Source of the DNA: an uncultured archaeon | Lineage (GTDB): Archaea > Asgardarchaeota > Lokiarchaeia > Sigyniarchaeales > SOKP01 | Length of the DNA stretch: 54,462 nt | Assembly (NCBI GenBank): GCA_964583985.1 | Contig: CAZOYD010000019.1 | Location: forward strand, 1-54,462 | Direction: 5' to 3' | Part shown: positions 23,568-50,501 of the stretch, piece by piece | Numbering within the stretch: position 1 is the first letter of the stretch | Layout: each line of letters starts with the position of its first letter | Translations under genes and position numbers: made by a program | The notes under the pieces: model-generated | Databases searched by the model: none | Told to the model about the DNA's origin: nothing | The model's input: only the letters and a program-made list of their open reading frames with translations

Positions 23568-23696
23568 ATCGTCTCATTCTCATTACTAGTAGTTGCCCAT
23601 TTTGTATTTATATTAAGGTTAAAAGATTTAAAAAGGTGATAAATACTATATATTTAGATATACAATTAATTTTCAATATAGGGAGCGTGAAAAATA

Positions 23697-24500
23697 ATTT
23701 CGGGGTATATTGGTAAGAAAATTCGGTTGGAAAGAATAATTAATAGAGAAACGAATAAAACCGTAATTGTTCCAATGGATCATGGTTTAACAGATGGACC
23801 GATTAAGGGAATAGATTGCAAGATTGGAGAGATGGTCAATAAAATCGCTTTAGGGGGTGCAAATGCAGTCCTTGGTCATATTGGAATCCCTCTCCACGCA
23901 CATAGGGGATACGGTCCTGATATTGGATTGATTCTTCATTTATCGGGTTCAAATTCTTTAAGTCCTGATGCAAATTATAAGGTTTTAATAAACTCGGTTT
24001 TAGAAGCTGTAAGATTTGGATCAGATGGAGTTTCTTTACATATAAATATAGGAACTAAATCAGATCCTGAAATGCTAGAAACACTTGGTAGAGTTTCTCA
24101 AGAATGCCGAGAATATGGAATGCCACTAATTGCAATGATGTATCCACGAGGACAAAACATTAAAAATGAATATGATGTTGGTGTGGTAAAGATAGTTGCT
24201 CGAGTCGCAGCAGAATTAGGTGCAGACCTAGTAAAAACAAATTGGCCAGGCGATCCCGATTCATTTAAGCAAGTTGTTGATGGTTGTATGGTGCCAGTTA
24301 TAATAGCAGGTGGCGAAAAAACGGGAATTAAAGAGATCATGGAAATTACTAAACAATCTATTGAAGTTGGTGGTGCTGGTGTTGCATATGGGAGAAATGT
24401 TTTTCAAGCAAAGAATCCAACAAATGTGGTAAAAGCATTATGTTTGATTGTGCATAAAAATTACGATGTCACTGAGGCAATGAAAGAGTCAGGATTATAA
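23697..24500 (+). CDS. DhnA-type class I aldolase, likely 2-amino-3,7-dideoxy-D-threo-hept-6-ulosonate (ADH) synthase; predicted ATT start
   Basis: GKKIRLERI, IVPMDHG, LILHLS, MMYPRG, AELGADLVKT, AGG, GRNVFQ; first TTG at 23727 falls inside the conserved N-terminus. Confidence 0.85.
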   Translation: MSGYIGKKIRLERIINRETNKTVIVPMDHGLTDGPIKGIDCKIGEMVNKIALGGANAVLGHIGIPLHAHRGYGPDIGLILHLSGSNSLSPDANYKVLINSVLEAVRFGSDGVSLHINIGTKSDPEMLETLGRVSQECREYGMPLIAMMYPRGQNIKNEYDVGVVKIVARVAAELGADLVKTNWPGDPDSFKQVVDGCMVPVIIAGGEKTGIKEIMEITKQSIEVGGAGVAYGRNVFQAKNPTNVVKALCLIVHKNYDVTEAMKESGL

Positions 24501-24559
24501 CGATTGGGAGTTGATGATTAATACAACCTATATCAGAGAGAATTTTACTAATTAATGAT

Positions 24560-24877
24560 GTGTGTTTTTATATTTCTCTTTTTAAATTGCACAAGAGTTA
24601 CTTATTATTATTGTCTGATCAAAAAGAAATGGGTATTGGGAGTGTTACGCTAAGTAGCCCCTCGCATATCGACGGAGTCAAAACATCCTCTTCTTCTTAT
24701 ACTCTATTTGGAATTCAGAACAAAATTATAAACAAAGTAGTTGTAGAACGTGTAGCTAATTTATTGAACACTCCAGTCTTAATGTTATCATTCTTTAAAA
24801 ATAAAATAGTTGAAGAAGATTTCATTAAGCCAATAATGAATTGTCTTAACGAAATGGTCTCATTATTAATTAATTAA
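24560..24877 (+). CDS. PAC4-like proteasome assembly chaperone; may start at ATA 24521
   Basis: GSVTLSSP...YTLFG...ERVANLLNTPVL pattern resembles PAC4/PSMG4. Confidence 0.5.
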   Translation: MCFYISLFKLHKSYLLLLSDQKEMGIGSVTLSSPSHIDGVKTSSSSYTLFGIQNKIINKVVVERVANLLNTPVLMLSFFKNKIVEEDFIKPIMNCLNEMVSLLIN

Positions 24878-24932
24878 AATTTCTAATTGTCAAGATTATT
24901 CAAAATTTTTACGCTTATAACTATAATTAAGA

Positions 24933-25054
24933 TGCAGGGAAGGGGATTTGAACCCCTGTAGACCTATGTCAATGGATCTTGAGTGTGGTTAAAAGAAGGA
25001 TAAGAGCCCCTTCCTTTATTTGTCCACCGCCGTTGACCGCTTGGCTATCCCTGC
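24933..25054 (-). tRNA. tRNA-Leu (CAA) with an intron at about 32/33 (24983-25021)
   Basis: GCAGGGA/TCCCTGC acceptor, long variable arm, CAA at 24979-24981, GTGG/CCAC BHB helix. Confidence 0.9.
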
Positions 25055-25160
25055 CAGATATTTCAAAGGCTAAATAATTTGATATAATGAAAATTCATTA
25101 TTAATCTTTTCAATAAATCGTTTCTGTATAAATGAGCATGTTTATTTCTGTTTGATAATT

Positions 25161-25391
25161 TTATGCTCCCATAAACAACGTAAAAATTATCAAAACACCT
25201 AGCATTGAAAACATTATAACCATTTGAATTCTATTTTTTTTCTTGCTTTTCTTTTCTTTTGCTAAATAATTATCCCGACAGGCTTGACTACAAAATTGTT
25301 TATCAGCGGGCATAGCTTTGCGACAAACAGGACAATGACTATGAGGACCCCACTTTTTTTTTATCTGATCTTTCCATGACGATTGAGACAT
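25161..25391 (-). CDS. DUF2116 family zinc-ribbon membrane protein
   Basis: PHSHCPVC.K.....FCS..C plus a C-terminal TM helix. Confidence 0.85.
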   Translation of the reverse strand: MSQSSWKDQIKKKWGPHSHCPVCRKAMPADKQFCSQACRDNYLAKEKKSKKKNRIQMVIMFSMLGVLIIFTLFMGA

Positions 25392-25458
25392 TTTCTCTTC
25401 CTTTTTAATTCTTAGAATAATAAATTAAGATAAATAAATTAATTTTTCGAATTGAAAA

Positions 25459-26172
25459 TCAATTTGAAATTATAGTACCAACAAAATCAGATTTACCATC
25501 CCATAATTTCTTGAATTCGCTTAAATCTGTTCCAGAGACAACCTTTACATTTAATTTACTTCTTTTCATTATTTGCAGGGAGACGGCATCAAATATTCGA
25601 TATTCTCCAGCAGAAGCTTGATTTTCATTAGAATCTTTTAAAATTAAAATTTGTAATTTTTCGAGAGGTAAATTTTTAATTAACTTAGCATCATTAAATT
25701 TATTTGGATCTTTATCAAATATCCCAGCAACATCAGTGAGAATGATTACTTGGTCTGCATCGATGAACTCAGCTACCTCTAATGCAACTGAGGTCGTTGA
25801 TTGCCCTGGTTGTATACCACCCATAATAATTATCTTATTAAACAAGAGAGCTCGTGCTAATTCTCCAAATTTTTTAGGAATTTCTGGATACGCTATGCTA
25901 CCGAACATTTCCATTAATAATCGAGCATTAATGTGAGATATTTTAATCCCCATAATATCTTTTGATGTTTCGTTCGAATGTACAGATCCTATCGCAGAAA
26001 TATAGCTTCTTGCTATTTTACCTCCACCACATATTATGATTATCTTATCATAACGTTGGTTAGCCTTAATTATGTTACAAAATTGAATTATTTGTTGTAT
26101 ATTGATTTTGAAATCTTCTGAAAATATGATTGACCCGCCAATTTTTATTACAATATTTTTCATAATAATCAA
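25459..26172 (-). CDS. pyrH: Uridylate kinase
   Basis: KIGGS, GGG..AR, MGG..PGQST, VAGIF.KDP, D. Confidence 0.93.
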   Translation of the reverse strand: MIIMKNIVIKIGGSIIFSEDFKINIQQIIQFCNIIKANQRYDKIIIICGGGKIARSYISAIGSVHSNETSKDIMGIKISHINARLLMEMFGSIAYPEIPKKFGELARALLFNKIIIMGGIQPGQSTTSVALEVAEFIDADQVIILTDVAGIFDKDPNKFNDAKLIKNLPLEKLQILILKDSNENQASAGEYRIFDAVSLQIMKRSKLNVKVVSGTDLSEFKKLWDGKSDFVGTIISN

Positions 26173-26226
26173 ATTAGATTTTTCTTTTATTTATTAATAT
26201 ATAGATGATTAGTTAAATTAAGTTAT

Positions 26227-27201
26227 TTGAGTTACATGTCTAATAGAGAGGTAAAAGTTGTCGTAAAAGTGCCACACCGCATTTCAGGATTTTTTGAAAT
26301 TGTCGATAAGTTAAATGGGGTTGAAATAAAAGATCCTCAATTAATTGGTTCACGGGGTGCGGGATTTAATATCAAGCATTTCGGAATAACTGAAATAACA
26401 AGGCAAGATCCAAAAGATCCCTCTTATTCTACGTGTCAAATCTTCATAAATGGTACAGAATTAAATGAAAAAGCCGAAACAACGCATTTTATTTTCAACT
26501 ATTTAAAACAGTATTTTCCAAAAGCGTCTCACGTGATTATTGAGCACAATTTTGATTTACCCGTTGGTTGTGGATATGGAGCAAGCGGTTCTGGAGCCTT
26601 AGGTGTTGTATATGGACTAAATTCTCTTTTAAAATTGAATATTTCAGATTTTGAGAAAGGTAAGATCGCCCATATTGCGGAGGTTTCTAATAAAACAGGT
26701 TTAGGAACAATTTGTGGTCAATTAGGGGGTGGTATGTGCATTTTAAAAGAACCAGGTTATCCTTGTATCTCAGAAAGGATTCAGTTTCCATCGGATTTAA
26801 GTGTAATCTGTGGTTCCTTTGGAATGATTCCTACGAAATCAATATTGAATGATCCAAATTTAAATTTGAACATAAAAAATGCAGGTAAAGATGCATTGAT
26901 TAAATTACTTCATAATCCAACTATTTATACATTTATGAATGCTTCAATTGAATTTGTGCAAAAAACCCATATTCTTGAGATTTTGCATCTTAATTCTACC
27001 CGAGATTTAATTGAAGATTTAAATAAATTAAAAATTATAGGTGCTAGTATGAATCAATTGGGAAAATCAGTATATGCAGTATGCAATAAAAAGAATGAAG
27101 CTGAAGTAATTGATGTGTTTGCAAACTATTTACCAAAAATAAGCATAATAAAATCAAGTATTTATGAGGATAAAACTATTAATTTTATAAGTAAAAATTA
27201 G
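26227..27201 (+). CDS. pok: Pantoate kinase (GHMP family)
   Basis: PHRISGFF, GSRGAG, PVGCGYGASG, AHIAEV...TGLG, SMNQLG. Confidence 0.9.
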   Translation: MSYMSNREVKVVVKVPHRISGFFEIVDKLNGVEIKDPQLIGSRGAGFNIKHFGITEITRQDPKDPSYSTCQIFINGTELNEKAETTHFIFNYLKQYFPKASHVIIEHNFDLPVGCGYGASGSGALGVVYGLNSLLKLNISDFEKGKIAHIAEVSNKTGLGTICGQLGGGMCILKEPGYPCISERIQFPSDLSVICGSFGMIPTKSILNDPNLNLNIKNAGKDALIKLLHNPTIYTFMNASIEFVQKTHILEILHLNSTRDLIEDLNKLKIIGASMNQLGKSVYAVCNKKNEAEVIDVFANYLPKISIIKSSIYEDKTINFISKN

Positions 27202-28019
27202 GATTCTCTAGAGGCATTTAGAAGTTTAGATTTTATAGCTGCAGCCTCCACAGCTCTAATTAGAGTTGCTCTTAATTTTGCGGACTCGATTTCATGAATA
27301 GCGGTGATTGTTGTTCCACCTGGAGTTGCAACCATATCCTTCAATTCTCCAGGATGCTTTCCTGTTTCTAATAATAATTTTGCTGAACCCATAACTGTTT
27401 GCGCTGCTAATTTTTGTGAAATTGCTCGAGGTAGCCCCATCTTTACTCCTCCATCTGCTAAAGCTTCAATTATTATAAAGACATAAGCAGGTCCACTACC
27501 AGATAGACCAGTCACTGCATCTAAGTGAATTTCTTCTAATTCCACAACTAATCCCACAGATTCGAATAATTTCTTGGTAAAATCAAATTCTATCTCGTTT
27601 ATGTATTCATTTGATGCGATAGCAGTCGCTGCGGCTCCAATAATACATGGAGTGTTTGTCATAATTCTTATTAAACCGATAGGTTTATTGATAAATTTAA
27701 AAATATGTTCAAAAGACACCCCTGCGGCAATAGAAATTATTGTTTGATCCTCTGAAATTACTGTATTAATTTCTTTTAAAATATTATTTATGACTTGGGG
27801 AATAACAGCTATTAAAATAAAACGGGATCTTTTGACCAAATCTAAATTATTTTTTGCAATTTCAACATTTAATGCTTTAGAAATGTCCTTTAAACGAGTC
27901 TCATCAATGTCATAAATAAGGATTGAATCGTTTTTAACCGTATTCGTATTAACAAAACGTTTTAATAATGCTGAACCAATTTTGCCAATTCCAATGATTC
28001 CTAATTCTTTTTCAAACAT
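27198..28019 (-). CDS. proC: Pyrroline-5-carboxylate reductase
   Basis: GIGKIG, ISIAAG, RIMTNTP, TGLSGSGPAY, ALADGGV..GL, V.TPGGTT. Confidence 0.95.
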   Translation of the reverse strand: MFEKELGIIGIGKIGSALLKRFVNTNTVKNDSILIYDIDETRLKDISKALNVEIAKNNLDLVKRSRFILIAVIPQVINNILKEINTVISEDQTIISIAAGVSFEHIFKFINKPIGLIRIMTNTPCIIGAAATAIASNEYINEIEFDFTKKLFESVGLVVELEEIHLDAVTGLSGSGPAYVFIIIEALADGGVKMGLPRAISQKLAAQTVMGSAKLLLETGKHPGELKDMVATPGGTTITAIHEIESAKLRATLIRAVEAAAIKSKLLNASRES

Positions 28020-28080
28020 ATTTAAAAATTAATACTGATACCAAAATAAGTTTATGATTCGTTTTAATATTTGAGATGGA

Positions 28081-28578
28081 TTAATAAAAACTATTATCAA
28101 TAAAATCTGCATCTCTGATGCCAAAATCAGTCCAAATATTTCGTTCTAATAAGATTTTATTTCGAAAATTCTCCTTTTCATAGAAATTATATTTTTGAAA
28201 AAATCTAATACCTTCTATATAATGTTGAGGTAATTCTATATGAATGATTGCGATCCCATCTTCCTTCTGTAGATTTATAAATTTATCTAATAAAAAATGA
28301 CCAATCTTATTATTTCTAAATTTGGGGGTTACGAAAATTAGTTTTAAAGAGGTCGTGGGAAGGAGATTTATTATCGGATCATCATTATTACATTTCTTAT
28401 CGGCAATGAGGATACCAACTAACAAATCATCTTGTAAAGCAGCTAAGATGATATAACTTTCATTATTATAGTTATCTGAAAATCCATCAATAAAGTCAAT
28501 AAATTCTTTTGCACACAATCTTAAATCTATTAATGACAAATTTGTTGAAGACACTAGAGTGATTTCTAAATCTTTCAT
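28081..28578 (-). CDS. GNAT family acetyltransferase
   Basis: IFVTPKFRNNKIG..LL motif A; FFQKYNF. Confidence 0.75.
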   Translation of the reverse strand: MKDLEITLVSSTNLSLIDLRLCAKEFIDFIDGFSDNYNNESYIILAALQDDLLVGILIADKKCNNDDPIINLLPTTSLKLIFVTPKFRNNKIGHFLLDKFINLQKEDGIAIIHIELPQHYIEGIRFFQKYNFYEKENFRNKILLERNIWTDFGIRDADFIDNSFY

Positions 28579-28585
28579 TATGTAT

Positions 28586-29332
28586 TCAAATATCTACCTG
28601 GTATAATTGATTTTTTAAATCCTCAATCATATGAGATCTTATTTTACCTTTTTGTCTATCGAAATTATCGCATACAATGCTTCTTACTCCAATGATGTCT
28701 GGTGAAATTTTTTTGATTTTTGAAATTGATTCCTTCATTAAATTGCCAGCTAAAGCGACCTCAAGATTTTCATTTTTTGATATTTTTTTGAACTCCATCA
28801 ATTGTTCAACGTTTAAAAAATCAAATAATCCTTTTCCATCTTTTATAAATGTATCAAGCATTGCTATATCAGATCCCGATTTAGCGGCAATTATAGGGAT
28901 AGATAAAAAATCAGGAGACGTCTTTATTCTTTTATAGTCGGCGTAGCCTGCTGCTACTACCTTAATTTCTTTATTATAGTTTTTCACTGCTTTTACTACT
29001 TTTTCCATTAGATCAATTCCTTCTTCAACATTTTTAGGTCCTTTTAACCCAACTTTGATAATATCCGCACCAGAAACTGCTGCACCTAATGCAGCTAAAG
29101 ATGCTGAACCTGGCAGATAGGGAAAGTCTCCTATCGTAGCACTCAGCTTCTGTGAGCTACTTTGTGGAATCAATCCTTTCATTTGATTAATAATCCACGG
29201 AAAATTAGCACCTAATGAACCTTCATCGGGATTTTTGCAATCCACATAATCAACTCCCGAGTTGACAGTTATTCTTGCTTCTTCAATATTTTTAGGGCTT
29301 ACTAATAATTTTATTTTTTGCGCCATTGTCAA
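28586..29332 (-). CDS. mfnB: (5-formylfuran-3-yl)methyl phosphate synthase (methanofuran biosynthesis)
   Basis: LLVSP, D.KNP.EGSLGA, SATIGD, IKVGL, MLDT.IKDG, ALAG, IIGVRS. Confidence 0.92.
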   Translation of the reverse strand: MTMAQKIKLLVSPKNIEEARITVNSGVDYVDCKNPDEGSLGANFPWIINQMKGLIPQSSSQKLSATIGDFPYLPGSASLAALGAAVSGADIIKVGLKGPKNVEEGIDLMEKVVKAVKNYNKEIKVVAAGYADYKRIKTSPDFLSIPIIAAKSGSDIAMLDTFIKDGKGLFDFLNVEQLMEFKKISKNENLEVALAGNLMKESISKIKKISPDIIGVRSIVCDNFDRQKGKIRSHMIEDLKNQLYQVDI

Positions 29333-29624
29333 TCCTATTTTATGTGACTTCCTAAAAAACTCATATTGTGAATTGCTTAATTAATTTTTTATTTTCAATC
29401 TTTTAAATTAACAGTTAATAATAATCACATTTTAAATACCGTTATAAATTTAAATTTTAGGAGAATAATAAAAAATTATGTATTAGAGATTGTCAACTCT
29501 CTTTTCTTTCCCCAGAGAATTTTCAATTAGATAATCTTAAGACCTCAATTGTATTTTTAATCGTGATATAAAAGTTTAAATTAAATAATTATTATTAAAT
29601 ATCAAAAAAAATGATGATTTAATT

Positions 29625-30155
29625 TTGTCACCCAAAGAAATCACTAAATTAGATATAACTAACCAAGTATTTAAAGAACCGATTGAAGTTATCAAACAAT
29701 TATCTGCTAATCTTGAAGGTTTAAAATATACTAAAGTAATACAGACTTTTGTCTTGGAGGATCGCAGATTAAGCCTTTCTATAGAAAGTGAAGGCGCAGG
29801 AGAATTCAAGGGAAAAGTAGTATGGATTGGTAATACAAAAGATGAAAGTGCTGGTACTATTTTCTGCATAGATAATAAATCGGAATTGAAACAAATAACC
29901 CCAACAGCAGAAAACACGGAAACTGTAATATTAGATATTAAAAAAGAATTAATCAAGGTTACAACTTCTTCCAAGACAAATTGTGCCGTATGTGGAAAAA
30001 GAATTGAAATTTTTGATGAAGTTGTTGGATGTCCTTTATGTGAAACTAAAGCTCATAAAGATCACATGATTGATTGGGTGAGAATGAAACACTCTTGTCC
30101 TGTATGCAAAAAATCATTAAATGTTTCAAGTACTGGTGTTATATTTATAGATTAG
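29625..30155 (+). CDS. Protein with a C-terminal RING-like zinc finger
   Basis: CAVC...CPLC...AH..H...W......CPVC. Confidence 0.7.
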   Translation: MSPKEITKLDITNQVFKEPIEVIKQLSANLEGLKYTKVIQTFVLEDRRLSLSIESEGAGEFKGKVVWIGNTKDESAGTIFCIDNKSELKQITPTAENTETVILDIKKELIKVTTSSKTNCAVCGKRIEIFDEVVGCPLCETKAHKDHMIDWVRMKHSCPVCKKSLNVSSTGVIFID

Positions 30156-30884
30156 GTCTCTTAATTTTTGTATGTTTATGGTTCCATCATAAAGAGCAGT
30201 TCCTATTAATACTCCAGAAAATTGGTTATCATAATATGCTTGAATATCTGATAAATTCTTTATTCCACCTCCTACATATATTTCTCCGTTAAATTGATTT
30301 CGTATATCAAGATATAGTGGTGAAATTCCTCCCAACTTCTGTCCAACTCGGAATAAATCGAGGAGTATAATTTTGTAAACCCCTAAATCCCCTATTTTTT
30401 TCACAATATCAGGAATAGAGTTAAACTTTAATTCATTGATTTGTGTAATAACTTTCTCTAAATACATATCAATACTTACTATTATTTTTTCCTTTCCTAT
30501 TACACGTAATGTGCTTTCAATTACATCTAAATTCTCTAACGTCTCTAATCCAATTATGATATCCTCAATTCCAAGTTTAAGTATTGCATTAGTATCTTCT
30601 TCAGTTGAAATACCTGAATCTAGCATAATTTTAATATCATATTTATGCAGCAGCATTAAAATAATTTCTGAGTTTAATTGATTTCTCATAATAGCATCCA
30701 AATCTGCAATATAAAACTCATTAAACGTATATTTATTATGAAGGGTTTCAATAATATCGTTTGGGTCACTAGTTCTAAACATATAAGATTTTAACGGGGC
30801 GTATTGACTTCTTTTTCCCTTAATAGCATGAACACATATAGAATTGAGGATGTCCAATACAGGAATTATTTCAAAATTGCTCAT
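30126..30884 (-). CDS. HisA/HisF-related TIM-barrel protein (C1-cofactor associated)
   Basis: IIPVLDI...CVHA.KG.R..Y.P, YIADLDAI, GLET, SID, LDL..VG, GGGI. Confidence 0.85.
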   Translation of the reverse strand: MSNFEIIPVLDILNSICVHAIKGKRSQYAPLKSYMFRTSDPNDIIETLHNKYTFNEFYIADLDAIMRNQLNSEIILMLLHKYDIKIMLDSGISTEEDTNAILKLGIEDIIIGLETLENLDVIESTLRVIGKEKIIVSIDMYLEKVITQINELKFNSIPDIVKKIGDLGVYKIILLDLFRVGQKLGGISPLYLDIRNQFNGEIYVGGGIKNLSDIQAYYDNQFSGVLIGTALYDGTINIQKLRDLIYKYNTST

Positions 30885-31046
30885 GTTTACGACAAATTTA
30901 AATTTATTTTAAGATAAATTACCGATATGAAATACTCTTGTTTTTTATAAATATTCATTAATTAGATATTAATAAATTACTTTTTTAAGAATATAATTTA
31001 AAAAGATCCATACATATCTAATAAAAGTTATATTTAACGTGATAAT

Positions 31047-32753
31047 ATGTCAACAGAATCATATATTAATAAAATTATGGATGAAACTGGATTATCTCGA
31101 AAAGACATTCAAGATCTAGTGGATGAAAAGAAAGCAGAATTAAAAGGATTAATTACTGATGATGGAGCACTACTTCTTATAGCTAAAGAGTTAAAGGTAG
31201 AGGTTAAAAAAGAGAATAAAGACACTATCAATAACTTTGAAGTTAAGATCTCTGATGTTTCCCTTGGGATGAAAAATATTGTTTTGGTAGGAAGGATCAA
31301 AGAAGTTAATAAAATATTCAATTTTACCAGAAGTGATGGAAGCGAGGGATATGTTGGTTCATTTTTGATCCAAGACGAATCAGGAGAGATTCGCATTGTA
31401 TTATGGGATGATGATACTAACATTTTAAGAGATGAAAATTTTGTTTCAAATGAAGTTGTAAAAATTATCAATGGGTACACCAAAGAAGGTCGTTTTCAGG
31501 ATTTAGAAATACATGTTGGAAGGTTTGGAAAAATTATTTTATGCCCAGAAGATATTGAATATAATAAAATTCCTAAAATAAAGCAAACCTTTACAAAAGT
31601 AGGGGATATCACTCCTAACTTCAAATCATATTCAATTAAAGGACAAGTAGTTAGCCTTACTCCAGCAAAAGAATTTGTTAGAAGTGATGGAAACACAGGA
31701 AAAGTTGGAACTCTTAATATTATGGATTCAACAGGGATAATTAGAATTATTTTTTGGAATGAAGATGTTGATAAAATTCAAGGAATCAAAGAAGGAGATT
31801 GTATTTCTATTACTCAACTTTCTCCACGCGAAAGTAAATTAAACTCAAAAACAATTGAGCTTTCGGCATCATCTAATACTATTATAAAGAAGATTAAAGG
31901 AAACTTTCAATATGAGGCAAAATTAGCTAAACACATAAAGGAACTCCAAGAAATAGATAATTTAATATCTTTTAAAGGAGTATTAACTTCTATTAGAGAT
32001 ATAAGAAAGGTTGCTCTTAAATCAGGAGAGGATGTGTCTGTAATCGATTTTGAAGTAAGTGATAATACGGGTTCAATTCGAGTCACCGCATGGAGAGATC
32101 TTGCGGAAAATTTGGCGGAAAAATTAACAAACGGTATGACGGTGTTGGTATCAAATGTAAAACTTAAGTATAATGAAAAATTTGACAGAAAAGAGGCTAT
32201 TTTCAATAATTTCTCTGAAATTGAGAAGATTAATGAGAAAATTGAATTTAACCAGAAAATTAGCTCAACAAGCACAAATTCAAAATTAAAATTTACAGAA
32301 ACAAAAATTGAATCAATTAATTCAATGGGGTTTTTTGAGATAAAAGGAAGCATTATAAAGGAAATTGATCTATCTAAAAAAGACTTGTTCATATATGATG
32401 CTTGTCCAATCTGCTTTAAAAAAGATACAAATTGTAAATGTAAGAAAAAGGAAGATCCTGAAAAAAGAATGATATTAAAAGTAATTCTGGATGATGAAAG
32501 TGGAACAATTAAAACTAGTTTTTTTGGACAACAAGCTGAAGAGTTGATTGGTAAAAAAGCAAGTGAGATCGCAAAGATGGAAGATATAGATAATATATTA
32601 AAAGATTTGGAAGGGCGTAGTTTGATTGTACGTGGAAAAGCGTCATTAAATGATTTTAATGATATGAATAATTATGAATTAAGTGTTGTTGATTTTCAAT
32701 TTACTGATCCTAAAGAGGAACTTAATTATCTAATGGAAGAACTAAATTCTTAA
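31047..32753 (+). CDS. Replication protein A large subunit (RPA1-like, multiple OB folds)
   Basis: Repeated D.SG/TG.IR...W OB motifs, N-terminal helical domain, CPIC...CKC zinc site. Confidence 0.9.
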   Translation: MSTESYINKIMDETGLSRKDIQDLVDEKKAELKGLITDDGALLLIAKELKVEVKKENKDTINNFEVKISDVSLGMKNIVLVGRIKEVNKIFNFTRSDGSEGYVGSFLIQDESGEIRIVLWDDDTNILRDENFVSNEVVKIINGYTKEGRFQDLEIHVGRFGKIILCPEDIEYNKIPKIKQTFTKVGDITPNFKSYSIKGQVVSLTPAKEFVRSDGNTGKVGTLNIMDSTGIIRIIFWNEDVDKIQGIKEGDCISITQLSPRESKLNSKTIELSASSNTIIKKIKGNFQYEAKLAKHIKELQEIDNLISFKGVLTSIRDIRKVALKSGEDVSVIDFEVSDNTGSIRVTAWRDLAENLAEKLTNGMTVLVSNVKLKYNEKFDRKEAIFNNFSEIEKINEKIEFNQKISSTSTNSKLKFTETKIESINSMGFFEIKGSIIKEIDLSKKDLFIYDACPICFKKDTNCKCKKKEDPEKRMILKVILDDESGTIKTSFFGQQAEELIGKKASEIAKMEDIDNILKDLEGRSLIVRGKASLNDFNDMNNYELSVVDFQFTDPKEELNYLMEELNS

Positions 32754-32813
32754 TATTTTGAGAATATAAATTATATTTATTTTAGTTATATATTTCATTA
32801 AATAATAAAATAT

Positions 32814-33767
32814 TTGTCTGAGATTATGAACCAGATTGATATTGTGGGTTTAGGAGAGGTAGTTGTCGATTGGGTTGCTGAAATTCCGCATTTTCCAAAA
32901 CCAGATGAAAAAATTAATGCACTTAGCGAAAATGTTTTTCCAGGGGGAGTAACTGCTAATTATTTAGTCGCAATATCGAGATTGGGAGGAAAAACTGGTT
33001 TTCTAGGTGCTGTAGGAAGTGACTCATACGGGGAATTTCTCATTTCTGACTTTAACAAAGAAAAAGTTAATACAAATTGGATTATAAAAAAAAAAGATAA
33101 AAAGACTCCAATAAATTTTATCATTATCGTAAAAGGAGAGAAGTCAATAATACAATCACCTCATATGTTAACAACTAAATTTGAAATTGCCGATCTTGAT
33201 GAATTTTCAATTAGCAATTCAAAATTATTGCATACTACTATGATCCATCAAGATGTTACAGAAAAGGCAATTGAAATTGCAAAAAAGAATGATATAATCG
33301 TTAGTATCGACTTAGAATCGCAAATTGCTCAAAGGGGATGGATAAATCTAAAAAAAATGATTTTAAAAGCAGATATCATAATTCCAAATAAAGAAGGGGC
33401 AAAAAAAATAACAAATAGTAAAACACCTCAAGAAGCAGCTAAAATTTTGATTAAAAAAGGGATTCCTATTGTAATTATTACTATGGGGAACAAAGGAGCA
33501 TTAATTACAACTAAAAATTATCAAAAAATGATTCCAGCCTATAACATTAAAAATATTGTTGATACAACTGGTGCAGGAGATACTTTTAATGGTGCATTTA
33601 CATTAGCTTATTGGATCAAGAAGTGGTCATTAGAAAAATCATGCAGATATGCAAATGCTGCCGCCGCACTTAAAATTCAAGAATTGGGGGCTCGATCTGG
33701 AATGCCTAATGAAATGGCCATTACTAAATTTTTAAAAGAAAATGATGAGTCTTTTATTGATAGTTAA
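32814..33767 (+). CDS. PfkB/ribokinase family carbohydrate kinase
   Basis: PGG..AN, G.VGSD.YG, PN..E-like, DTTGAGDTF, AN.AAA. Confidence 0.92.
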   Translation: MSEIMNQIDIVGLGEVVVDWVAEIPHFPKPDEKINALSENVFPGGVTANYLVAISRLGGKTGFLGAVGSDSYGEFLISDFNKEKVNTNWIIKKKDKKTPINFIIIVKGEKSIIQSPHMLTTKFEIADLDEFSISNSKLLHTTMIHQDVTEKAIEIAKKNDIIVSIDLESQIAQRGWINLKKMILKADIIIPNKEGAKKITNSKTPQEAAKILIKKGIPIVIITMGNKGALITTKNYQKMIPAYNIKNIVDTTGAGDTFNGAFTLAYWIKKWSLEKSCRYANAAAALKIQELGARSGMPNEMAITKFLKENDESFIDS

Positions 33768-34268: not shown

Positions 34269-34610
34269 TTAATTCCGATAAGATTGTTTTATCTGATCTT
34301 GAATGAGGATATTTTCTTCAGGAAATCCTTGATCCATCAAAAACTTTTTCATTTTTAGCTTATGATCTCCCTGTAGTTCAATTTCGTTATTTCTTACTGT
34401 TCCTCCTGATGCACATTTATGCTTTGCTTTTTTCAAAATATCTTTTAAATTTGCATCAAAATTACCTTCGAAAGTTATAACAGTAACGACACGCCCCCAT
34501 TTCCGCTTATCATTAGAAATAATTATTTGCTGCTCATTGGCGCTTAAACTATCACATATACATAGTTCTTTTGGAAAACTACATATCGGACAAATCTCGT
34601 CGTCTTTAAT
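34269..34610 (-). CDS. sui1: Translation initiation factor aIF1 (SUI1); predicted ATT start
   Basis: Manual translation (I/M)KDDEICPICSFPKELCIC...KRKWGRVVTVI...KCASGGTVRNNEIELQGDH; absent from the ORF track because it lacks an N-terminal NTG. Confidence 0.92.
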   Translation of the reverse strand: MKDDEICPICSFPKELCICDSLSANEQQIIISNDKRKWGRVVTVITFEGNFDANLKDILKKAKHKCASGGTVRNNEIELQGDHKLKMKKFLMDQGFPEENILIQDQIKQSYRN

Positions 34611-34818
34611 GTTCTTTCTTCACAACCTTTTTTATTAAAATCTTATAAAATTTAAGTGCTAAAATTTAATAGACCTAAATCTTATAAAAATCTTTTTTAT
34701 TTCGTTGATTAATTAAAAAGATAAATTTTTATTTATGAACCTAGTTTTGTAATTTAGCTATTGAGATAAAAAAGATATTCTATAAAACTATCAACAATCA
34801 ACTTTAAAGTGTGTAATT

Positions 34819-41447: not shown

Positions 41448-42615
41448 ATCCACTTTTTTAAATGCGGCTTGTTTAACTAATGCTAAAGTGAGTGAGATTC
41501 CTTTTACAACGATTAATCCAAATAATGGTGTAGCCTATGTTAGAGTCAATTGTGTTTGTAAGGAGTTAAATCTGATTGATAATCCACAAAATTCAAAGTG
41601 TATCGAAGGAAATCGTTTTATTCCTATCAATCTGATGGATGTTGCAGGACTTGTACCTGATGCACATAAGGGAAAAGGGTTAGGTAATCGCTTTTTGAAT
41701 GATTTAAGTAAAGCTGATGTGCTAATTCACATATTAGATGTCACAGGATCTTTAGATAAGATGGGGAAAAGAACTAATGACGGATTTAATGATCCATATG
41801 AAGATATTATCTTTTTAGAATCTGAAATAAATTTATGGTTCAAACAAATTTTGGAGAGGGAAGATTGGAATAAATTCGTAAAATCTGTTGCTCGAGAAAA
41901 AGGAAAATTCATAAATGAACTATATAATCGATTATCAGGAATAAAAATTAGAAAGTCGGACATAAAAAAGGCACTTAATAATTCAAATTTAGAAGATATA
42001 AGTCCATCATCTTGGTCTGAAGATAATTTACTTCTTTTTGCAAAAGAATTAAGAGAGATATCAAAACCAATTTTAATCGTAGCAAATAAAATTGATAAGA
42101 GCAATGGAAGAGAAAGATTTAATGAATTAAAAAAAAAGTATGACGGTCCTATATTTCCTTGTAGCGCTCTTGCAGAACATGTATTAAGAAAATTCGAGGA
42201 AAAAGGTATCTTGAGTTATATTCCAGGATCCAATAATTTTCAAATAAATCAAAAAGAAAAACTTTCTCAAAAAGAACAAGAAATATTAAATAATATAAAA
42301 GAAAAGATTCTAAATATCTATAACAGTACTGGTGTTCAAGATATTTTGAATTATGCCATATTTAATCTATCAAATCAAATTTATGTTTACCCCGTTTCTG
42401 ATTTGAATAATTATACAGATAATGATAATAATATTCTACCTGACGCGATATTAGTAAAGAATGGTACACATTTGAAAGATTTTGTACGGGATAAAATTCA
42501 TTCTGAATTAGCAGAACATTTTATGTTTGGTATTGATGCGAGAACTAAAAAACGAATAGGAGAAAACTACGTTCTTAAAAATAAGGATATTATTAAAATT
42601 GTAACTTCAAAATAA
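41404..42615 (+). CDS. ychF: YchF/OLA1-related archaeal translation-associated GTPase
   Basis: GKPSAGKST, PFTTI.PN, DVAGLVP.AH.G.GLGN.FL, ANKID, TGS-like C-terminus. Confidence 0.92.
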   Translation: MTIIIGIVGKPSAGKSTFLNAACLTNAKVSEIPFTTINPNNGVAYVRVNCVCKELNLIDNPQNSKCIEGNRFIPINLMDVAGLVPDAHKGKGLGNRFLNDLSKADVLIHILDVTGSLDKMGKRTNDGFNDPYEDIIFLESEINLWFKQILEREDWNKFVKSVAREKGKFINELYNRLSGIKIRKSDIKKALNNSNLEDISPSSWSEDNLLLFAKELREISKPILIVANKIDKSNGRERFNELKKKYDGPIFPCSALAEHVLRKFEEKGILSYIPGSNNFQINQKEKLSQKEQEILNNIKEKILNIYNSTGVQDILNYAIFNLSNQIYVYPVSDLNNYTDNDNNILPDAILVKNGTHLKDFVRDKIHSELAEHFMFGIDARTKKRIGENYVLKNKDIIKIVTSK

Positions 42616-42618
42616 GAT

Positions 42619-42768
42619 TTATTCTTCTCTAGAAGTTGTTAAAATGTAAGCTAATATTATAGACATCAAAATAACTCCTATGAGAACAATGAGGAAATTG
42701 AAAGTATCTTGCTCTGAAGTTTGAAAAATAAATAGTAAGATTAATGTGATAAAGCTGTAACTTTTCAT
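42619..42768 (-). CDS. Putative small membrane protein (49 aa)
   Basis: Manual translation MKSYSFITLILLFIFQTSEQDTFNFLIVLIGVILMSIILAYILTTSREE; SD-like AGGAATGA upstream. Confidence 0.5.
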   Translation of the reverse strand: MKSYSFITLILLFIFQTSEQDTFNFLIVLIGVILMSIILAYILTTSREE

Positions 42769-42885
42769 AAATATCATTCCTAAGAGATGATGAGTAATTA
42801 AAGTGTTCTTATTTTAAATAATTTTCAGTTATAGGATTAAAAAATTTATTATCGCTTTTTTAACGAACTATTTAGAAATTTTAAG

Positions 42886-42986
42886 TGGACCTGACGGGAA
42901 TTGAACCCGTGACCTCTTGAGTGCAAGTTTCGCCTATTAAGTTATACACTTAAGAATCAAGCGATCTGCTACTGATCTACAGGCCC
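42886..42986 (-). tRNA. tRNA-Ala (TGC) with an intron at about 30/31 (42929-42957)
   Basis: GGGCCTG/CAGGTCC with G3:U70, TGC at 42923-42925, CGCT/GGCG BHB helix. Confidence 0.9.
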
Positions 42987-43114
42987 CATAATTTATTCAA
43001 ATTGATTAAATAAGTGATAAATTCATTATAAAATTTATTGCCTTTCTAAAATTTAAGATAATGATTGAAAGAAAAAGAAGGTAAATTATGAACATCTGTA
43101 AATTAAATAATAAA

Positions 43115-44605
<1,491 letters not shown>

Positions 44606-44945
44606 AAAATTGGAATCTGTCACAAACGGCTTTAAAACTTTTAAAAATTATTACATTATTTTTTTTGGGAGTTATTAATTATTCTTTCTTCAGTTATAAT
44701 CTTTAAAATTATAACTACATTTTTTATATCACATCAATGACGCAACTCTTCATTTAACGGAACTTTGCCGTAATCCAAGCTCACACCGGTAATGATGTGA
44801 TTCGTTATATTTCTATAAAGAAGAGATTCATTTTAAATTTTGCCATTTTTTCGCAGTATAGGGTTTTAGTTTTTAATTTTCGTAGTTTAAAAACTTACTT
44901 AATAAATCAGTATTACAAATTTAATGATTGAACAGGAAGATAAAA

Positions 44946-45947
44946 ATGGAATTAAAAGAAAAGATATGTATTCACTTAGATCAAATTAAGCAACTTAAAG
45001 GTGTTGAAAATGCTGTTCTGACTCAACGAGATGGTAATCCCATTCAATCAGCAGGTGTCTGGTTTTCTAAAGATGAAATTTTTAATGTTAGTTCTGCCGC
45101 AAGTGCTATTTTCAATGTAGGAATTCACCTCCATCCTAATGATCTGAAATATATATTGATAGAAGGTAAAAAAGCAAAGATATTGATTGCTCCCTTAAAT
45201 AGTCCATTACACCATTCATTGAACAAAATATTAGAACAACAAGGTATATTTGATAACAAACATGAATATTTCATCGCTATTACAGCTCAACCTAATACAA
45301 ATCTTGGAGGAATTTTTTTACAAACTAATGAATGTTTGAAAAAAATTAAGACCACTCTTATAACCTCAGGAGAATCATTTAAACCACCTTTAGTACAATT
45401 TAATGAAGAGAAAATTCAAGATATTATTCGTGGTTTTGATGTTAAAGAAAATGCAGGTTTTGATATGCAAGTCAACTCCTTTTCACTTAGCTTATCTGAA
45501 TACATCTCTGTAGAGTTAAGAAAAATACTTAATAACTTTTCAGTTGCTGTTCCTGATATGTCACATGCTTATATCACACTTGAAGGAGGATTCATCGCAT
45601 CACAGATTTTAAATAGAAGAAATCTGTTTTATAATAATTTAGATAATATTTCTGCAATGAGCTATTCGTTATTTCAAACAGCAAATCGTTGTGCGTGGCT
45701 CTTAAAGAAGATGAATGCCGAAACAATCTTATTAGATTGTGAAAATACTTTTCAATTCATCTATGGTCTTGGAAACGCAATTTTTAGCACTGAAATTGGG
45801 AAAGCAAGACAAAAATTAGGTTTAATTAGATTGATACTCCCACAATTCTCAAAAAAAATCAGTTATCTCATTAAGGAAGCTTCTCAAATTCAAGATCATA
45901 AATCATTCGATATTAAATCATTATTAGGAGAGCTGGTAATTAAGTAA
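44946..45947 (+). CDS. Tandem roadblock/LC7 (MglB-like) domain protein
   Basis: GVENAVLTQRDGNPI...VSSAASAI...ILIEG; second repeat AYITLEGGFIAS...ISAMSYSL. Confidence 0.8.
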   Translation: MELKEKICIHLDQIKQLKGVENAVLTQRDGNPIQSAGVWFSKDEIFNVSSAASAIFNVGIHLHPNDLKYILIEGKKAKILIAPLNSPLHHSLNKILEQQGIFDNKHEYFIAITAQPNTNLGGIFLQTNECLKKIKTTLITSGESFKPPLVQFNEEKIQDIIRGFDVKENAGFDMQVNSFSLSLSEYISVELRKILNNFSVAVPDMSHAYITLEGGFIASQILNRRNLFYNNLDNISAMSYSLFQTANRCAWLLKKMNAETILLDCENTFQFIYGLGNAIFSTEIGKARQKLGLIRLILPQFSKKISYLIKEASQIQDHKSFDIKSLLGELVIK

Positions 45948-45961
45948 AACAAGGTGACTAT

Positions 45962-46858
45962 ATGGATTTTTTTAATGTGTTAGAAGATTTAAAGAAATCA
46001 GATTCATCATTAATTTTTTATTGTTTATTGAATCGAATTCCTATAATTATAACTGGAGAGGATTCAGAAATAATCGATAATTATTTAATCGATCTATCGG
46101 AATTGATGCATTTTCGAAAAGAGATTGTTTTTTATACTGATTTTATTTCAAATTCAGAATATCAGGAGCTTTTACAAAATGAAGCAATTGATTATAACTC
46201 TCAAAGGACTCAAATAAGGTCTTCTTGCGATGTATCTGGTAAATCTTTGATAGAAATTGATCAATTTAATTCATGGATCATAGGTTTTGAACTTGAAAAT
46301 AATAAGCTTAAACTCGAGAATTTTATAAAATTTATAAAAGAAAAAGTAAATGTTTTCTTGAATATTATGATTTACTCAAAATCCATATCAATAATTACGA
46401 TAGGATTAGATTTAAAACAATTAGATCTTACATTTGAGCAAAATATATTACAAAAAATTTCTCGAGACACGGAAAAATCTATAGTAAAAATGAAAAGAGT
46501 TCTTTTAGAGAAAACTAAACCTGAGAAACTTGATAAAGACCTTATAAAAACTTTACTCGACTTTGAGGTTGAAAAGAAAGAATTAAAGAAAAATATTTTA
46601 AAAAATGAAATACAAAAATTCTATTCCGGTTCTAAGAGAGCCTTTTTTATCTTATCAAAACTTAATTTATTAAATAGTTTTGAGATGAATGTGCGAATAG
46701 GAAGCAAATCGCTACTAGAAATAATTGATTATGATGAAGCTTCAATCGGAAGAATGGTTTCTTTTATAGAAAAGGAATGGGGAGAGGATTTTTCAGATTT
46801 ATTTGAAAATGGAAAAAAAGTTAATGCATTAGATAGTATGCAATCATTGTGGGGTTAG
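45962..46858 (+). CDS. Hypothetical protein, DENN-core-like
   Basis: IFYCLLNRIPIIITGED..I...L..L..L and SWIIGF resemble cDENN motifs; lies between roadblock and GTPase genes. Confidence 0.5.
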   Translation: MDFFNVLEDLKKSDSSLIFYCLLNRIPIIITGEDSEIIDNYLIDLSELMHFRKEIVFYTDFISNSEYQELLQNEAIDYNSQRTQIRSSCDVSGKSLIEIDQFNSWIIGFELENNKLKLENFIKFIKEKVNVFLNIMIYSKSISIITIGLDLKQLDLTFEQNILQKISRDTEKSIVKMKRVLLEKTKPEKLDKDLIKTLLDFEVEKKELKKNILKNEIQKFYSGSKRAFFILSKLNLLNSFEMNVRIGSKSLLEIIDYDEASIGRMVSFIEKEWGEDFSDLFENGKKVNALDSMQSLWG

Positions 46859-46866
46859 TGATAAAA

Positions 46867-47457
46867 ATGATATATGACTTTGAAAATAAGACATTACAAG
46901 TAAAAATTGTTTATTATGGTCCAGCGATGTCAGGCAAAACCACGACTATTAAACATTTATTTTCACATTTTAGTAGAGAGAATGAATTAGAATCGATTGA
47001 TAGCTCAGTTGGGAGAACGCTATTTTTTGATTTTGGAGTTTTAAATTTTCGAGGGGCTGAATGGGGATTAAAATTTTTAATTTATTCTGCTACGGGCCAA
47101 GATTTCTATGCTAGTACTCGCCCAGCAACACTTAATGGAGTTGATGGGATAATATTTGTTGTTGATTCTCGAACGATTTGTTTAAAGCATAACCTAAGAT
47201 CATGGAAAGAATTAAATACTATGCTTGGTTCGGAGTTTTTCAATATACCGATGGTAATATCCATGAATAAATATGATATAAATGATGATATTATTATGAA
47301 TGAAACCGATTTTAAAGATCATATAGATATCGACGCGTTTAAAAATGTGTCCGTTCAAAAAACAGCGGCTATTAGGGGATACGGGATAATTGAATCATTT
47401 AATCAAATGATTAAATTTATTTTTCCTCAATTGACCTTAAATATGAACACAAATTAA
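46867..47457 (+). CDS. MglA-like small GTPase
   Basis: KIVYYGPAMSGKTT, RTLFFDF, Y.ATGQ.FY..TR, GVDGIIFVVDS, NKYD. Confidence 0.9.
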   Translation: MIYDFENKTLQVKIVYYGPAMSGKTTTIKHLFSHFSRENELESIDSSVGRTLFFDFGVLNFRGAEWGLKFLIYSATGQDFYASTRPATLNGVDGIIFVVDSRTICLKHNLRSWKELNTMLGSEFFNIPMVISMNKYDINDDIIMNETDFKDHIDIDAFKNVSVQKTAAIRGYGIIESFNQMIKFIFPQLTLNMNTN

Positions 47458-47458
47458 A

Positions 47459-47641
47459 TTATTTTTCAATTTTTTGGTACATATTTTTAGAAATTCGTTT
47501 TATATAACCTTGTTTATAAAATTGCTTTAATAAATTCCTTACTTTCCGAACTTCTTGCGCATCGATTCCTAGAGCATCCATTAATTGGAAAATCGAAAAT
47601 TGGTTAGTTAATTCATTCTTGACGGTATTATAAGTTCCCAA
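47459..47641 (-). CDS. Small winged-helix-like protein
   Basis: FSIFQLMDALG...VRNLLKQFYKQGYIKRISKNMY. Confidence 0.65.
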   Translation of the reverse strand: MGTYNTVKNELTNQFSIFQLMDALGIDAQEVRKVRNLLKQFYKQGYIKRISKNMYQKIEK

Positions 47642-47924
47642 TATGTTTCCCTTTTTAACATATATTAAAAGTATTAAGAATAATGTTATAAAATATAAAT
47701 AAATTTTTAAAATTTGAAAAAGTATATTAAGAAAACTTTAATGGTTTTTATAATCCTCAAAGTAACTATAATTTATCATTCCTACGTTTTAGGTCATCTA
47801 ATTATACAGTTTTCATTGGATTTTTACAACCTAAGGGAATTCCTCAAATAAAATTATATTACTAATTTAAAAAGCTAAATATATTTTTCTATCTGTCATT
47901 TTACCCTATTTAGCAGAAATTATA

Positions 47925-48680
47925 TCAAAACTTAGGGCTCTCTTTCCTAAAACTATCTCCTATAGGTGCTTTTCCATCTCCATATATTTGATATAGCCCG
48001 ATTCTCCTTGCACATTCACTAAAACTGCGATAAACCTCTCTTTGTTTATCATATAATGCACAAGATTTATATATTATCGGATTCCATGTAGATAATTCAT
48101 GATCTGGATTGTACCATAACTTTTCTTCCTTTAATATTTGCTTAAAATCTTCTTCTCCAATTACTTCGTTTAAATCCTGTTTATTTAACATTATAACGAG
48201 AGGAATTTGTTTAATTAATCTGCACTCTGGAGATTTTCTTCCCCCGTATTGCGAAACTCCAGATAATTTCTGATCATTTAGCTCCTTTTCTTCTACGAAT
48301 GTGGTAACTTTTTTCAATTCTTTAAGTGATTCAATATTGTCTTCAAAAAAGTGAGTTTGAGAATCAACAACGAATATCACTCCATCAGTTCCTTTAAAAA
48401 TTCGTTCTCTCAAAGGGGAAAATCGACTTTGTCCGGCTACAGTATATACATGATAAAAAACCTTGTTTTGTTTAGTAGATTGAAAAAATCCTCGATCAAA
48501 ATATAATGTAGAACCACTAGCCATACAAATTTTTTTTAATTCTGCAACAGGAGTTATATCTTTATCTTGTTCTCTTGTGAGTCTATATAATGTATCTACG
48601 ATTGTTGTTTTCCCTGATCCTCCCATACCCCAGTAGAGGATTTTAATGTATATCTTATGATCTGGCAGAAATCTAACCAT
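47925..48680 (-). CDS. MglA/Arf-like small GTPase with an internal insertion
   Basis: KILYWGMGGSGKTT, TLYFD, YTVAGQ, GTDGVIFVVDS, NKQD, SCA. Confidence 0.88.
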   Translation of the reverse strand: MVRFLPDHKIYIKILYWGMGGSGKTTIVDTLYRLTREQDKDITPVAELKKICMASGSTLYFDRGFFQSTKQNKVFYHVYTVAGQSRFSPLRERIFKGTDGVIFVVDSQTHFFEDNIESLKELKKVTTFVEEKELNDQKLSGVSQYGGRKSPECRLIKQIPLVIMLNKQDLNEVIGEEDFKQILKEEKLWYNPDHELSTWNPIIYKSCALYDKQREVYRSFSECARRIGLYQIYGDGKAPIGDSFRKESPKF

Positions 48681-48983
48681 TAAAGCGCCTCTCTTAAATA
48701 ATATTTTATTAATTAAATAACCTAATATTAGATTTTTAAAATCAAAATAAATCTTTAATAATAAGTTCCTTTAAACTATATCATTTGATATTATTAAATA
48801 ATAATAGAATTAAACATTTATAACTCTTTTTTAGAAAACTCTGTTCATTAATTAATTGGAAAAGAACTTTTTATTTCTTTCTTTAAGATATTACACGCGA
48901 ACAATTCGTTATCTAATAACCTTTTTAGAAGCGGTTTGAATAATTTAAAGAGTAGTTGATTTTTTAGGTTTCAATTCCTTTCC

Positions 48984-49220
48984 TTAGAAGTTGACTAAAT
49001 AATTTCCCTTCCTAATATGATAATTACACCATATAATCAGTTGATTATACCTCTCTCCATAAAATTGTTCACGTATGATGACATTAATGATATCTGAATA
49101 CATAATTGGACGATTTTCATTAGTAATTTTCTTTAATTGGTTACATAATTCCTTTAATAGGTCTATATTTTTTCTTGGAATGTTTTCTATAAATTTTACT
49201 GTTTCAGAAATTCTTCTCAT
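48984..49220 (-). CDS. Small hypothetical protein
   Basis: 78-aa ORF with SD-like GGAGTTA upstream. Confidence 0.55.
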   Translation of the reverse strand: MRRISETVKFIENIPRKNIDLLKELCNQLKKITNENRPIMYSDIINVIIREQFYGERYNQLIIWCNYHIRKGNYLVNF

Positions 49221-49460
49221 AAAAGATTAACTCCATTCAAAAAATTCTATATTAAATTATTCATAATCAAAGATCTTTTAAGCTGAATAATATAAAGCCC
49301 ATTTTTTTTATTTTCAGCTAACCCTCTCTGATAGTGTAGAGATTTTCATTCCATTCATAAGTATTGTAGGTTCTCATATTTGAAACTTTGGTATGGATTA
49401 TTCAAATAAAAGTTTTTAATATTCGTTACTTCAAACCCTACAAATTTAAGGTGGTTAATT

Positions 49461-50501
49461 ATATTAAATGAAACTTTCAATCATAAAAATTTTAAAGAAT
49501 TATGTCCAGAATGCAATGGAAATATTATAAATAATAGTTATGAAATGATATGCAAAGAATGTGGATTGGTTTTAGAGAAATTGTTTAAGGAATCTTCCTA
49601 TATTTTTAACAATAGTGATGTAAAAAGTAATATAAATAAACAATTTGTAGCTTTAGGGAATAGAGCTGATTTTGTAGGAGGATTGGGAACATTTATAGAT
49701 TATGAGAATTCAAAATACCTTAAGGATAAATTTGGTAAATTACTACCTCCTCAAGAGCAAAAATTATACAGGAGACTTAAGAAAAATTATGCTCAGTTTC
49801 TAAGGATTAAAAACCATGAAACAGAATATAGAATTTTTAATATTTTAAATAAGATTGCACTATATCTTAATTTAAATAGAAATATTCGAAACAATGCAGC
49901 TTATTACTACAAGAAAATAATAAAAAACGAGGAAAAAATAATAAATAACATTTCATTAATTGCTTTTTGTATTTTTTATGCTGCTAGAAAAGAGCAACAT
50001 AACGCACCGTTAACGATTAATGAAATTTCTCATGCCTTTCAAAATTTTGGACATCGCGTTAATCCGAGGTTAATTTTAAGAGATGGTATAAAATATAAAA
50101 AATTTTTGAATAATTACACAATACCACATAAAAGCGAAGATTATTTAATAAGGTTAATTAATGAAATTAATAACCATAAAGATCTTGAAACACGTATCCG
50201 AAGTAAAGGAGTATGTTGGTCAAAAGAACAGTTTGAAAACCATTTAACAAATAAATGCCGAGAGGTGTTAAAAAAATTATCAGTTTGGCATCGTGGAGGT
50301 AGAAATCCATTCATTTTAGCAGGAGCAATTATATATTTAGCTGATAAACTTCTAGCAAGAGAATTCAATCAAAAAGCGATTTTAACACAAAAATTAATTT
50401 CAGAAGCGACCAACATAGCAGAATACTCGATAAGAGATCATTATGTTAATTTATTAAAACCAATTTTTATGAGCAGAGAAAAGCAATTTTCCTCCAATTG
50501 A
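49461..50501 (+). CDS. Divergent TFB/TFIIB paralog; predicted ATA (or ATT 49458) start
   Basis: CPECNG...ICKECGLV zinc ribbon, cyclin repeats, GRNP..LAGA.IY, LTQ..ISEA...EYSIR..Y. Confidence 0.85.
   Translation: MLNETFNHKNFKELCPECNGNIINNSYEMICKECGLVLEKLFKESSYIFNNSDVKSNINKQFVALGNRADFVGGLGTFIDYENSKYLKDKFGKLLPPQEQKLYRRLKKNYAQFLRIKNHETEYRIFNILNKIALYLNLNRNIRNNAAYYYKKIIKNEEKIINNISLIAFCIFYAARKEQHNAPLTINEISHAFQNFGHRVNPRLILRDGIKYKKFLNNYTIPHKSEDYLIRLINEINNHKDLETRIRSKGVCWSKEQFENHLTNKCREVLKKLSVWHRGGRNPFILAGAIIYLADKLLAREFNQKAILTQKLISEATNIAEYSIRDHYVNLLKPIFMSREKQFSSN

Follow-up and report, generated by a model that had tools for sequence, protein, structure and literature searches.

A stretch of 54,462 nucleotides (hereafter the window) from an uncultured Lokiarchaeon (GTDB lineage Asgardarchaeota; Lokiarchaeia; Sigyniarchaeales; SOKP01; GenBank assembly GCA_964583985.1, contig CAZOYD010000019.1, positions 1 to 54,462, forward strand) carries four genes, among them that of the initiation factor aIF1, in which the only apparent start codon is ATT or ATA behind a Shine-Dalgarno (SD) motif. 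Comparison with relatives indicates that very probably about 4% of the genes of this genome and of its family, including aIF1, begin at ATT, ATA or ATC (together ATH, or AUH in RNA) behind a strong SD; that this family initiates at codons other than ATG, GTG and TTG (here NTG) is hardly in doubt. The explanation preferred here, considered fairly probable, is that near-cognate initiation in one Lokiarchaeia family is compensated by the SD and that aIF1 is probably a self-regulating sensor. The window is one contig of a 3.8 Mb genome bin with 32% GC, and database labels on its close homologs are Promethearchaeota or Ca. Lokiarchaeota.

Four genes without an NTG start codon

A previous examination of the window from its letters only (the sequence-only reading) had proposed that three genes, and probably a fourth (PAC4-like), have no NTG codon above their N-terminus and start at ATT or ATA behind a motif complementary to the 3' tail of the 16S rRNA, and ortholog alignment agrees. 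This tail, the anti-SD, lies at 43116-43126 (-) and was located from an Rfam match (RF01959, 43116-44604) and from the sequence.

The aIF1/SUI1 gene (34269-34610, -; 113 aa; PF01253, above cut-off) would start at ATT 34610. Its SD (34620-34628, -) is imperfect but conserved, holds an in-frame TGA (34622-34620), lies 9 nt above the ATT and gives a predicted duplex of -7.6 kcal/mol. No NTG stands above the conserved N-terminal residues, the first TTG of the frame being codon 61, and the protein keeps an intact zinc knuckle and loop 1 in addition to its SUI1 domain. The SD, the in-frame TGA and the ATT are unchanged in 17 of 17 genomes of the genus. Of 49 sequences from the family, 47 have ATT and two have ATA at the start position, whereas ATT makes up 52% of the isoleucine codons elsewhere in the gene. 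A five-codon GTG micro-open reading frame (34606-34623, -), out of frame, starts inside the SD and its TAA overlaps the ATT; relatives show the same geometry, which is possibly just a side effect of the SD sequence.

The gene of an ADH synthase of the DeoC/LacD aldolase family (23697-24500, +; PF01791, the name being taken from cluster members) encodes 267 aa from ATT 23697, 6 nt behind an SD motif (23681-23690, +; -12.1 kcal/mol) that holds an in-frame TGA (23688-23690). No ATG, GTG or TTG precedes the conserved N-terminal residues, and the first TTG, at 23727, falls within the conserved IGKKIRLER motif. At the orthologous Met, 16 of the 17 genomes of the genus have ATT or ATA and the remaining one has TTG, whereas other families have ATG. 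Just downstream, a small PAC4-like gene (24521-24877, +; 118 aa), matched weakly and below cut-off by PF16093 (E=0.022), has a frame that reads TGA TGA and then ATA 24521, again with no ATG, GTG or TTG above the conserved residues; its SD motif is at 24506-24514 (+; -10.6 kcal/mol). The ATA is confined to this species, where it is present in two independent assemblies and in a second strain, and all 14 relatives with a match have ATG at the same or the adjacent codon.

The TFB paralog (49461-50501, +; PF00382 and PF08271) most likely starts at ATA 49461, which is preferred over ATT 49458 because its spacing from the SD motif (49448-49454, +; -10.2 kcal/mol for the ATA) is 6 rather than 3 nt. 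There is no NTG above the conserved residues, and the first ATG, at 49545, lies within the zinc ribbon. Orthologs start with ATG, TTG or ATH, most of them having an ATG or TTG 13-15 codons above the first cysteine, and two carry an in-frame GTG inside the SD, which is a formal alternative start. A second copy on contig C45 of the same bin, with 88% identity and a similar tRNA nearby, is likewise devoid of NTG; either the gene was duplicated or the bin (contamination 5.25%) includes a second strain. All four frames of the window are closed upstream by a stop codon, as the sequence-only reading had stated, but in the TFB paralog this stop stands 16-17 codons above the start rather than adjacent to it, and ATA suits the start better than ATT.

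The predicted SD duplexes of these genes contrast with a median of -3.5 kcal/mol at ATG starts. Sequencing or assembly error, judged unlikely from the outset, was ruled out by independent assemblies and by orthologs. Indeed, the codons of the ADH synthase, PAC4-like and TFB genes recur in contigs of JGI 3300031364, 3300031692 and 3300031699 and in the second strain (97-98% amino acid identity), and the ATT of aIF1 recurs in 20 metagenome contigs. The idea that such genes cluster in the window was not upheld, as four among ~55 genes are no more than the family-wide rate allows (P=0.09-0.24 at a rate of 3-4.5%).

Frequency and SD compensation of probable ATH starts

The genome was compared with 1.56 Mb from four relatives of the same genus. 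At starts anchored by orthologs, ATH with SD was found in 19 of 446 genes (4.3%, confidence interval 2.7-6.6%) and in 25 of 540 in the relatives, the class being defined with an SD filter so that a few false calls may remain. The anchored genes use ATG in 80%, TTG in 10%, GTG in 5% and ATH in 5% of cases; ATH and GTG are equally common in the genome itself (19 each), and AUH accounts for 19 of 143 SD-led starts. The share of TTG, which had looked high in the list of open reading frames, is reduced to about 10% of starts; several TTG calls in the window sit 2-6 codons above a likely ATG. An ortholog-free scan placed 43 of 1135 ATH codons and 15 of 3328 control codons at SD spacings of 5-7 (~5 expected for ATH; indicative p=7e-15), and the excess was seen in all three sets of relatives. 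The preferred distance from the SD is 6 nt for ATH (27 of 62), the same as for ATG, and the control codons show no peak. CTG (3/32) and ACG (3/36) also occur at the right spacing, at per-opportunity rates like that of ATH, in small numbers. By extrapolation, a genome of the family could hold roughly 100-200 AUH genes.

SD-led initiation at AUU and AUA and relaxed start-codon selection, as proposed earlier, are supported, with AUC as a further codon. The lineage concerned is the family; 400 kb taken from a sister family's closed genome show no ATH excess (1/105 against 2/358 for control codons, a comparison of low power), and one CTG start was seen there.

The weak codon is accompanied by a stronger SD. 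In ATG/ATH ortholog pairs, here picked without an SD filter, the stronger SD is on the ATH side in 19 of 21 (indicative p=2e-4), by a median of 3.7 kcal/mol; the TTG counterpart gives 33 of 45 pairs, and ATG/ATG pairs are symmetrical (175:148). The RpoN gene, whose first Met is set by the protein, illustrates this within the family: 26 genomes have ATG (10), TTG (4), ATH (10), ACG (1) or GTT (1) at this position, the last two of which could use an adjacent ATH. The SD of the 12 non-NTG cases ranges from -7.1 to -15.1 kcal/mol and that of the ATG cases from +0.7 to -7.2, nine of these ten being weaker than -7.1. It was confirmed that a near-cognate codon occupies the orthologous Met position where no canonical start is available, and that a stronger SD stands at normal spacing; the codon pattern and its compensation are direct observations on these genomes. 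As a separate observation, 171 of the 280 anchored ATG starts of the genome have a weak SD or none, yet TGA still peaks at -9 in them, as a degenerate vestige of GGTGA.

The aIF1 start and competing explanations

Outside the family, 70 aIF1 loci from other Asgard families, not selected by codon, were inspected: an ATA or CTG start is required in 11 genomes from six families, about seven loci are ambiguous and the rest have ATG, GTG or TTG. The CTG starts belong to five loci of two families. Divergent second copies of aIF1 in three genomes also have ATA or ATT behind a GAGGTG-type SD. In the 11 genomes with ATA or CTG at aIF1, every one of the 86 copies of ribosomal-protein genes has an NTG; overall, NTG-less copies number 4 of 37 in the family against 2 of 190 outside it. 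Judged by the ribosomal-protein genes, the weak start of aIF1 is gene-specific outside the family; inside it, it stands on a labile background of ~4%. From this conservation pattern, aIF1 is singled out from the other ATH genes, its codon being fixed rather than switching.

The events behind this pattern, namely initiation itself, the feedback and the drift, are inferred. The helix between SD and anti-SD would hold the 30S subunit so that the triplet ~6 nt further on comes to lie in the P site, where canonical Met-tRNAi would pair with AUH at two of three bases. With AUU as the start of its mRNA and an SD that is moderate and long-spaced, aIF1 could limit its own synthesis, and its level would settle at a stringency that still admits AUU; genes with a stronger SD would clear the same bar. 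In a genome of 32% GC, changes from ATG to ATH could then be fixed near-neutrally, or as a cheap reduction of output, wherever the SD is strong and whatever the gene does. Feedback of aIF1 on its own synthesis, by analogy with bacterial IF3, is somewhat favoured. Tuning of AUH genes by the level of aIF1 is plausible; a wider version, in which the AUU loop of aIF1 sets a low stringency to which more than 100 SD-led genes, including those of RNA polymerase and ribosomal subunits, respond together, is doubtful.

Several observations weigh against this explanation. No cause of the laxity of the family was found in the initiator tRNA gene, the 16S landmarks, loop 1 of aIF1 or aIF1A. Indeed, the initiator tRNA-Met gene (9606-9744, +), found by blastn with the tRNAi of a relative and missed by Rfam and ARAGORN, is canonical in its gene sequence (A1-U72, three G-C pairs in the anticodon stem, CAU anticodon), so that an altered initiator tRNA gene was discarded as the cause; the decoding landmarks of 16S, loop 1 of aIF1 and aIF1A show nothing unusual by eye, in a comparison that did not include aIF2 and aIF5B. 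The genomes of the family are kin and not independent, and the p-values and invariance counts are for this reason indicative only and overstated. An in-frame GTG occurs inside the SD in 4 of the 49 family aIF1 sequences. A non-AUG start is also not needed for aIF1, because many archaea, including many Asgard families, keep ATG: in 80 loci, mostly of Bathyarchaeia and Methanomethylicia, the start is ATG in 73 and TTG in six, and the single locus without NTG is that of Baldrarchaeum, an Asgard. This sample also rules out, for the loci it covers, a pan-archaeal non-AUG start. Finally, lineages with a non-NTG aIF1 and no laxity in ribosomal-protein genes exist, so the aIF1 loop alone does not yield the drift towards AUH. 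As a side observation, the TTG of the six loci, all from TACK archaea, stands behind an AGGTGA SD; five of them are named Methanomethylicia or Methanosuratincola, and Bathyarchaeia have ATG without a clear SD.

A general laxity without feedback, in which ribosome or factors are tolerant and something else keeps the ATT of aIF1 unchanged (such as a constantly low output or the micro-open reading frame that overlaps it), would account for the NTG-less ribosomal-protein genes of the family, for the CTG and ACG codons at the right spacing and for the lower Pfam score given by aIF1 of Promethearchaeales. It is nonetheless unlikely, since aIF1 is singled out in lineages without such laxity (the 0/86 above) and loops of this kind have been proven in the case of IF3 and eIF1 (PMC4705826). 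The sequence-only reading had further suggested a possible regulon tuned by the level of aIF1. In a true regulon, AUH starts would have been selected on a defined set of genes that follows this level or the nutrient state. The ATH genes encode ferredoxin, Rag-type GTPases, ThiS, RpoN, Rpo4, OsmC, CutA, FtsX, an M50 peptidase, an aminotransferase, a 3-hydroxyacyl-CoA dehydrogenase, a DEAD_2 helicase, Lsm, uS4, uS8, uS14, eS19 and TFB. Stable membership and shared function were looked for in this set and not encountered: functions are mixed, from ferredoxin to M50 peptidase, and most genes swap among ATG, TTG and ATH between species, even within genera (RpoN in three of them), the ATA of the PAC4-like gene being limited to one species. 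Fixed codons are limited to aIF1 and, at the level of the genus, to ADH synthase. Mixed functions and codon switching disfavour a regulon, and tolerance plus drift fits better. Points for a regulon are the ATH kept in ADH synthase, ATH in both genomes of 15 ortholog pairs (some of them false anchors), the several information genes hit (RpoN, Rpo4, uS4, uS8, uS14, eS19, Lsm, TFB) and the response to medium of the AUA start of ccpN in S. aureus (PMC13009471). On balance a true regulon is improbable, and it is quite likely that the AUH genes are mostly passengers.

Animal mitochondria read AUH with a modified initiator tRNA anticodon. A comparable change of decoder, or mRNA editing, would make AUH a cognate start and would agree with the use of all three third-position variants and with ATH being as common as GTG. 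Such a change is very improbable here: the tRNAi gene is canonical, ATH requires a strong SD as expected of a weak codon, CTG and ACG occur at similar per-opportunity rates (in small numbers) and ATG still makes up four fifths of the starts. It is extremely improbable that the pattern stems from sequencing errors, pseudogenes, downstream NTG codons or a GTG in the SD followed by a +1 frameshift. Every GGTGA-type SD does contain a GTG, but a frameshift would exert no selection for ATH at the position of the Met, downstream starts would remove the zinc knuckles of aIF1 and TFB and the N-terminus of RpoN, and the codons recur in independent assemblies and across dozens of genomes.

Known systems, annotation and other features

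Reviews give only AUG, GUG and UUG as archaeal starts and describe SD sites as uncommon in Lokiarchaea (PMC7531240, PMC12993045). Neither AUH starts in Asgard archaea nor an autoregulated aIF1 turned up in the literature searched, which did not cover subscription journals. AUH starts in archaea appear new to that literature, although NCBI annotation already assigns Met to at least one of these ATT codons: the record MBY9002545.1, an ADH synthase ortholog, opens in this way. Non-AUG starts are tolerated in archaea (PMC7531240, PMC7261190), but near-cognate sites in Haloferax ribosome profiling were alternative ones, set aside as possible false positives (PMC7531240, PMC7261190), whereas AUH would here be the only possible start of essential genes.

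The closest likeness is with bacterial infC (PMC4705826, PMC5499595), where the gene of a fidelity factor, IF3, also has a conserved non-canonical start behind an SD. The infC start (AUU, AUC or AUA) is linked to translational autoregulation, whereas the feedback of aIF1 is proposed by analogy; aIF1 is a SUI1-fold factor and not a homolog of IF3, and it stands within a background of ~4% AUH genes, bacteria having only a handful. IF3 and eIF1 each regulate their own production by way of weak starts, and aIF1 of Sulfolobus rejects AUU in vitro (PMC4705826). A weak start of its own would likewise allow aIF1, the ortholog of eIF1, to sense stringency, but eukaryotes use AUG in a poor Kozak context with scanning (PMC4705826), while here a near-cognate codon would be placed by the SD. 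In S. aureus, extended SDs sustain AUU and AUA starts at 10-30% of AUG output (PMC13009471), and the genes cvfC1, ccpN, citZ and infC, together with pcnB of E. coli, combine these codons with a strong SD, some being conserved and some lineage-specific (PMC13009471). The four S. aureus sites rest on ribosome profiling and reporters; the ~100-200 genes per genome estimated here come from sequence comparison and include RNA polymerase and ribosomal subunits.

The policing of start codons by aIF1 has so far been shown only in vitro (PMC4705826), and the aIF1 leader could serve as a simple test bed for this function and for the control of the factor's own level. If true, AUU autoregulation of aIF1 would complete the IF3/eIF1 loop in the third domain. 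The findings also bear on the loosening and tightening of start-codon fidelity in the lineage closest to eukaryotes. On the practical side, common gene finders cut proteins of the family short because their genes very probably begin at ATT, ATA or ATC. Among the deposited proteins of this very genome, ADH synthase has 241 aa where 267 are expected, and the TFB paralog has 318 where about 346 are. The truncation foreseen by the sequence-only reading is thus supported, while its prediction that such genes would be missed is only partly true, as MBY9002545.1 illustrates. Deposited proteins of the family lose N-terminal zinc knuckles, P-loops and first strands, with effects on domain calls and protein expression.

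Furthermore, several tRNA genes of the window contain introns. The initiator tRNA-Met gene has two, one at 37/38 and one in the T-loop, and an ortholog in another genome has the T-loop intron only. A tRNA-Leu(CAA) gene (24933-25054, -), uncalled by Rfam and ARAGORN, has an intron just 5' of the anticodon loop, and a tRNA gene with an intron and an anticodon that is apparently TGC (Ala) lies immediately after the 16S gene (42886-42986, -).

Elsewhere in the bin, an in-frame TGA is conserved in hydrogenase-, heterodisulfide reductase- and SelD-like genes, and a tRNA-Sec gene is present (contigs C23, C24, C60, C11 and C27:19492-19584), which points to the use of selenocysteine. Lokiarchaeota are known to use this amino acid. 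Another in-frame TGA, in an apparent transporter gene on contig C84 (minus strand, near open reading frame offset 712), corresponds to CGT in the ortholog of a relative, and this gene is probably broken.

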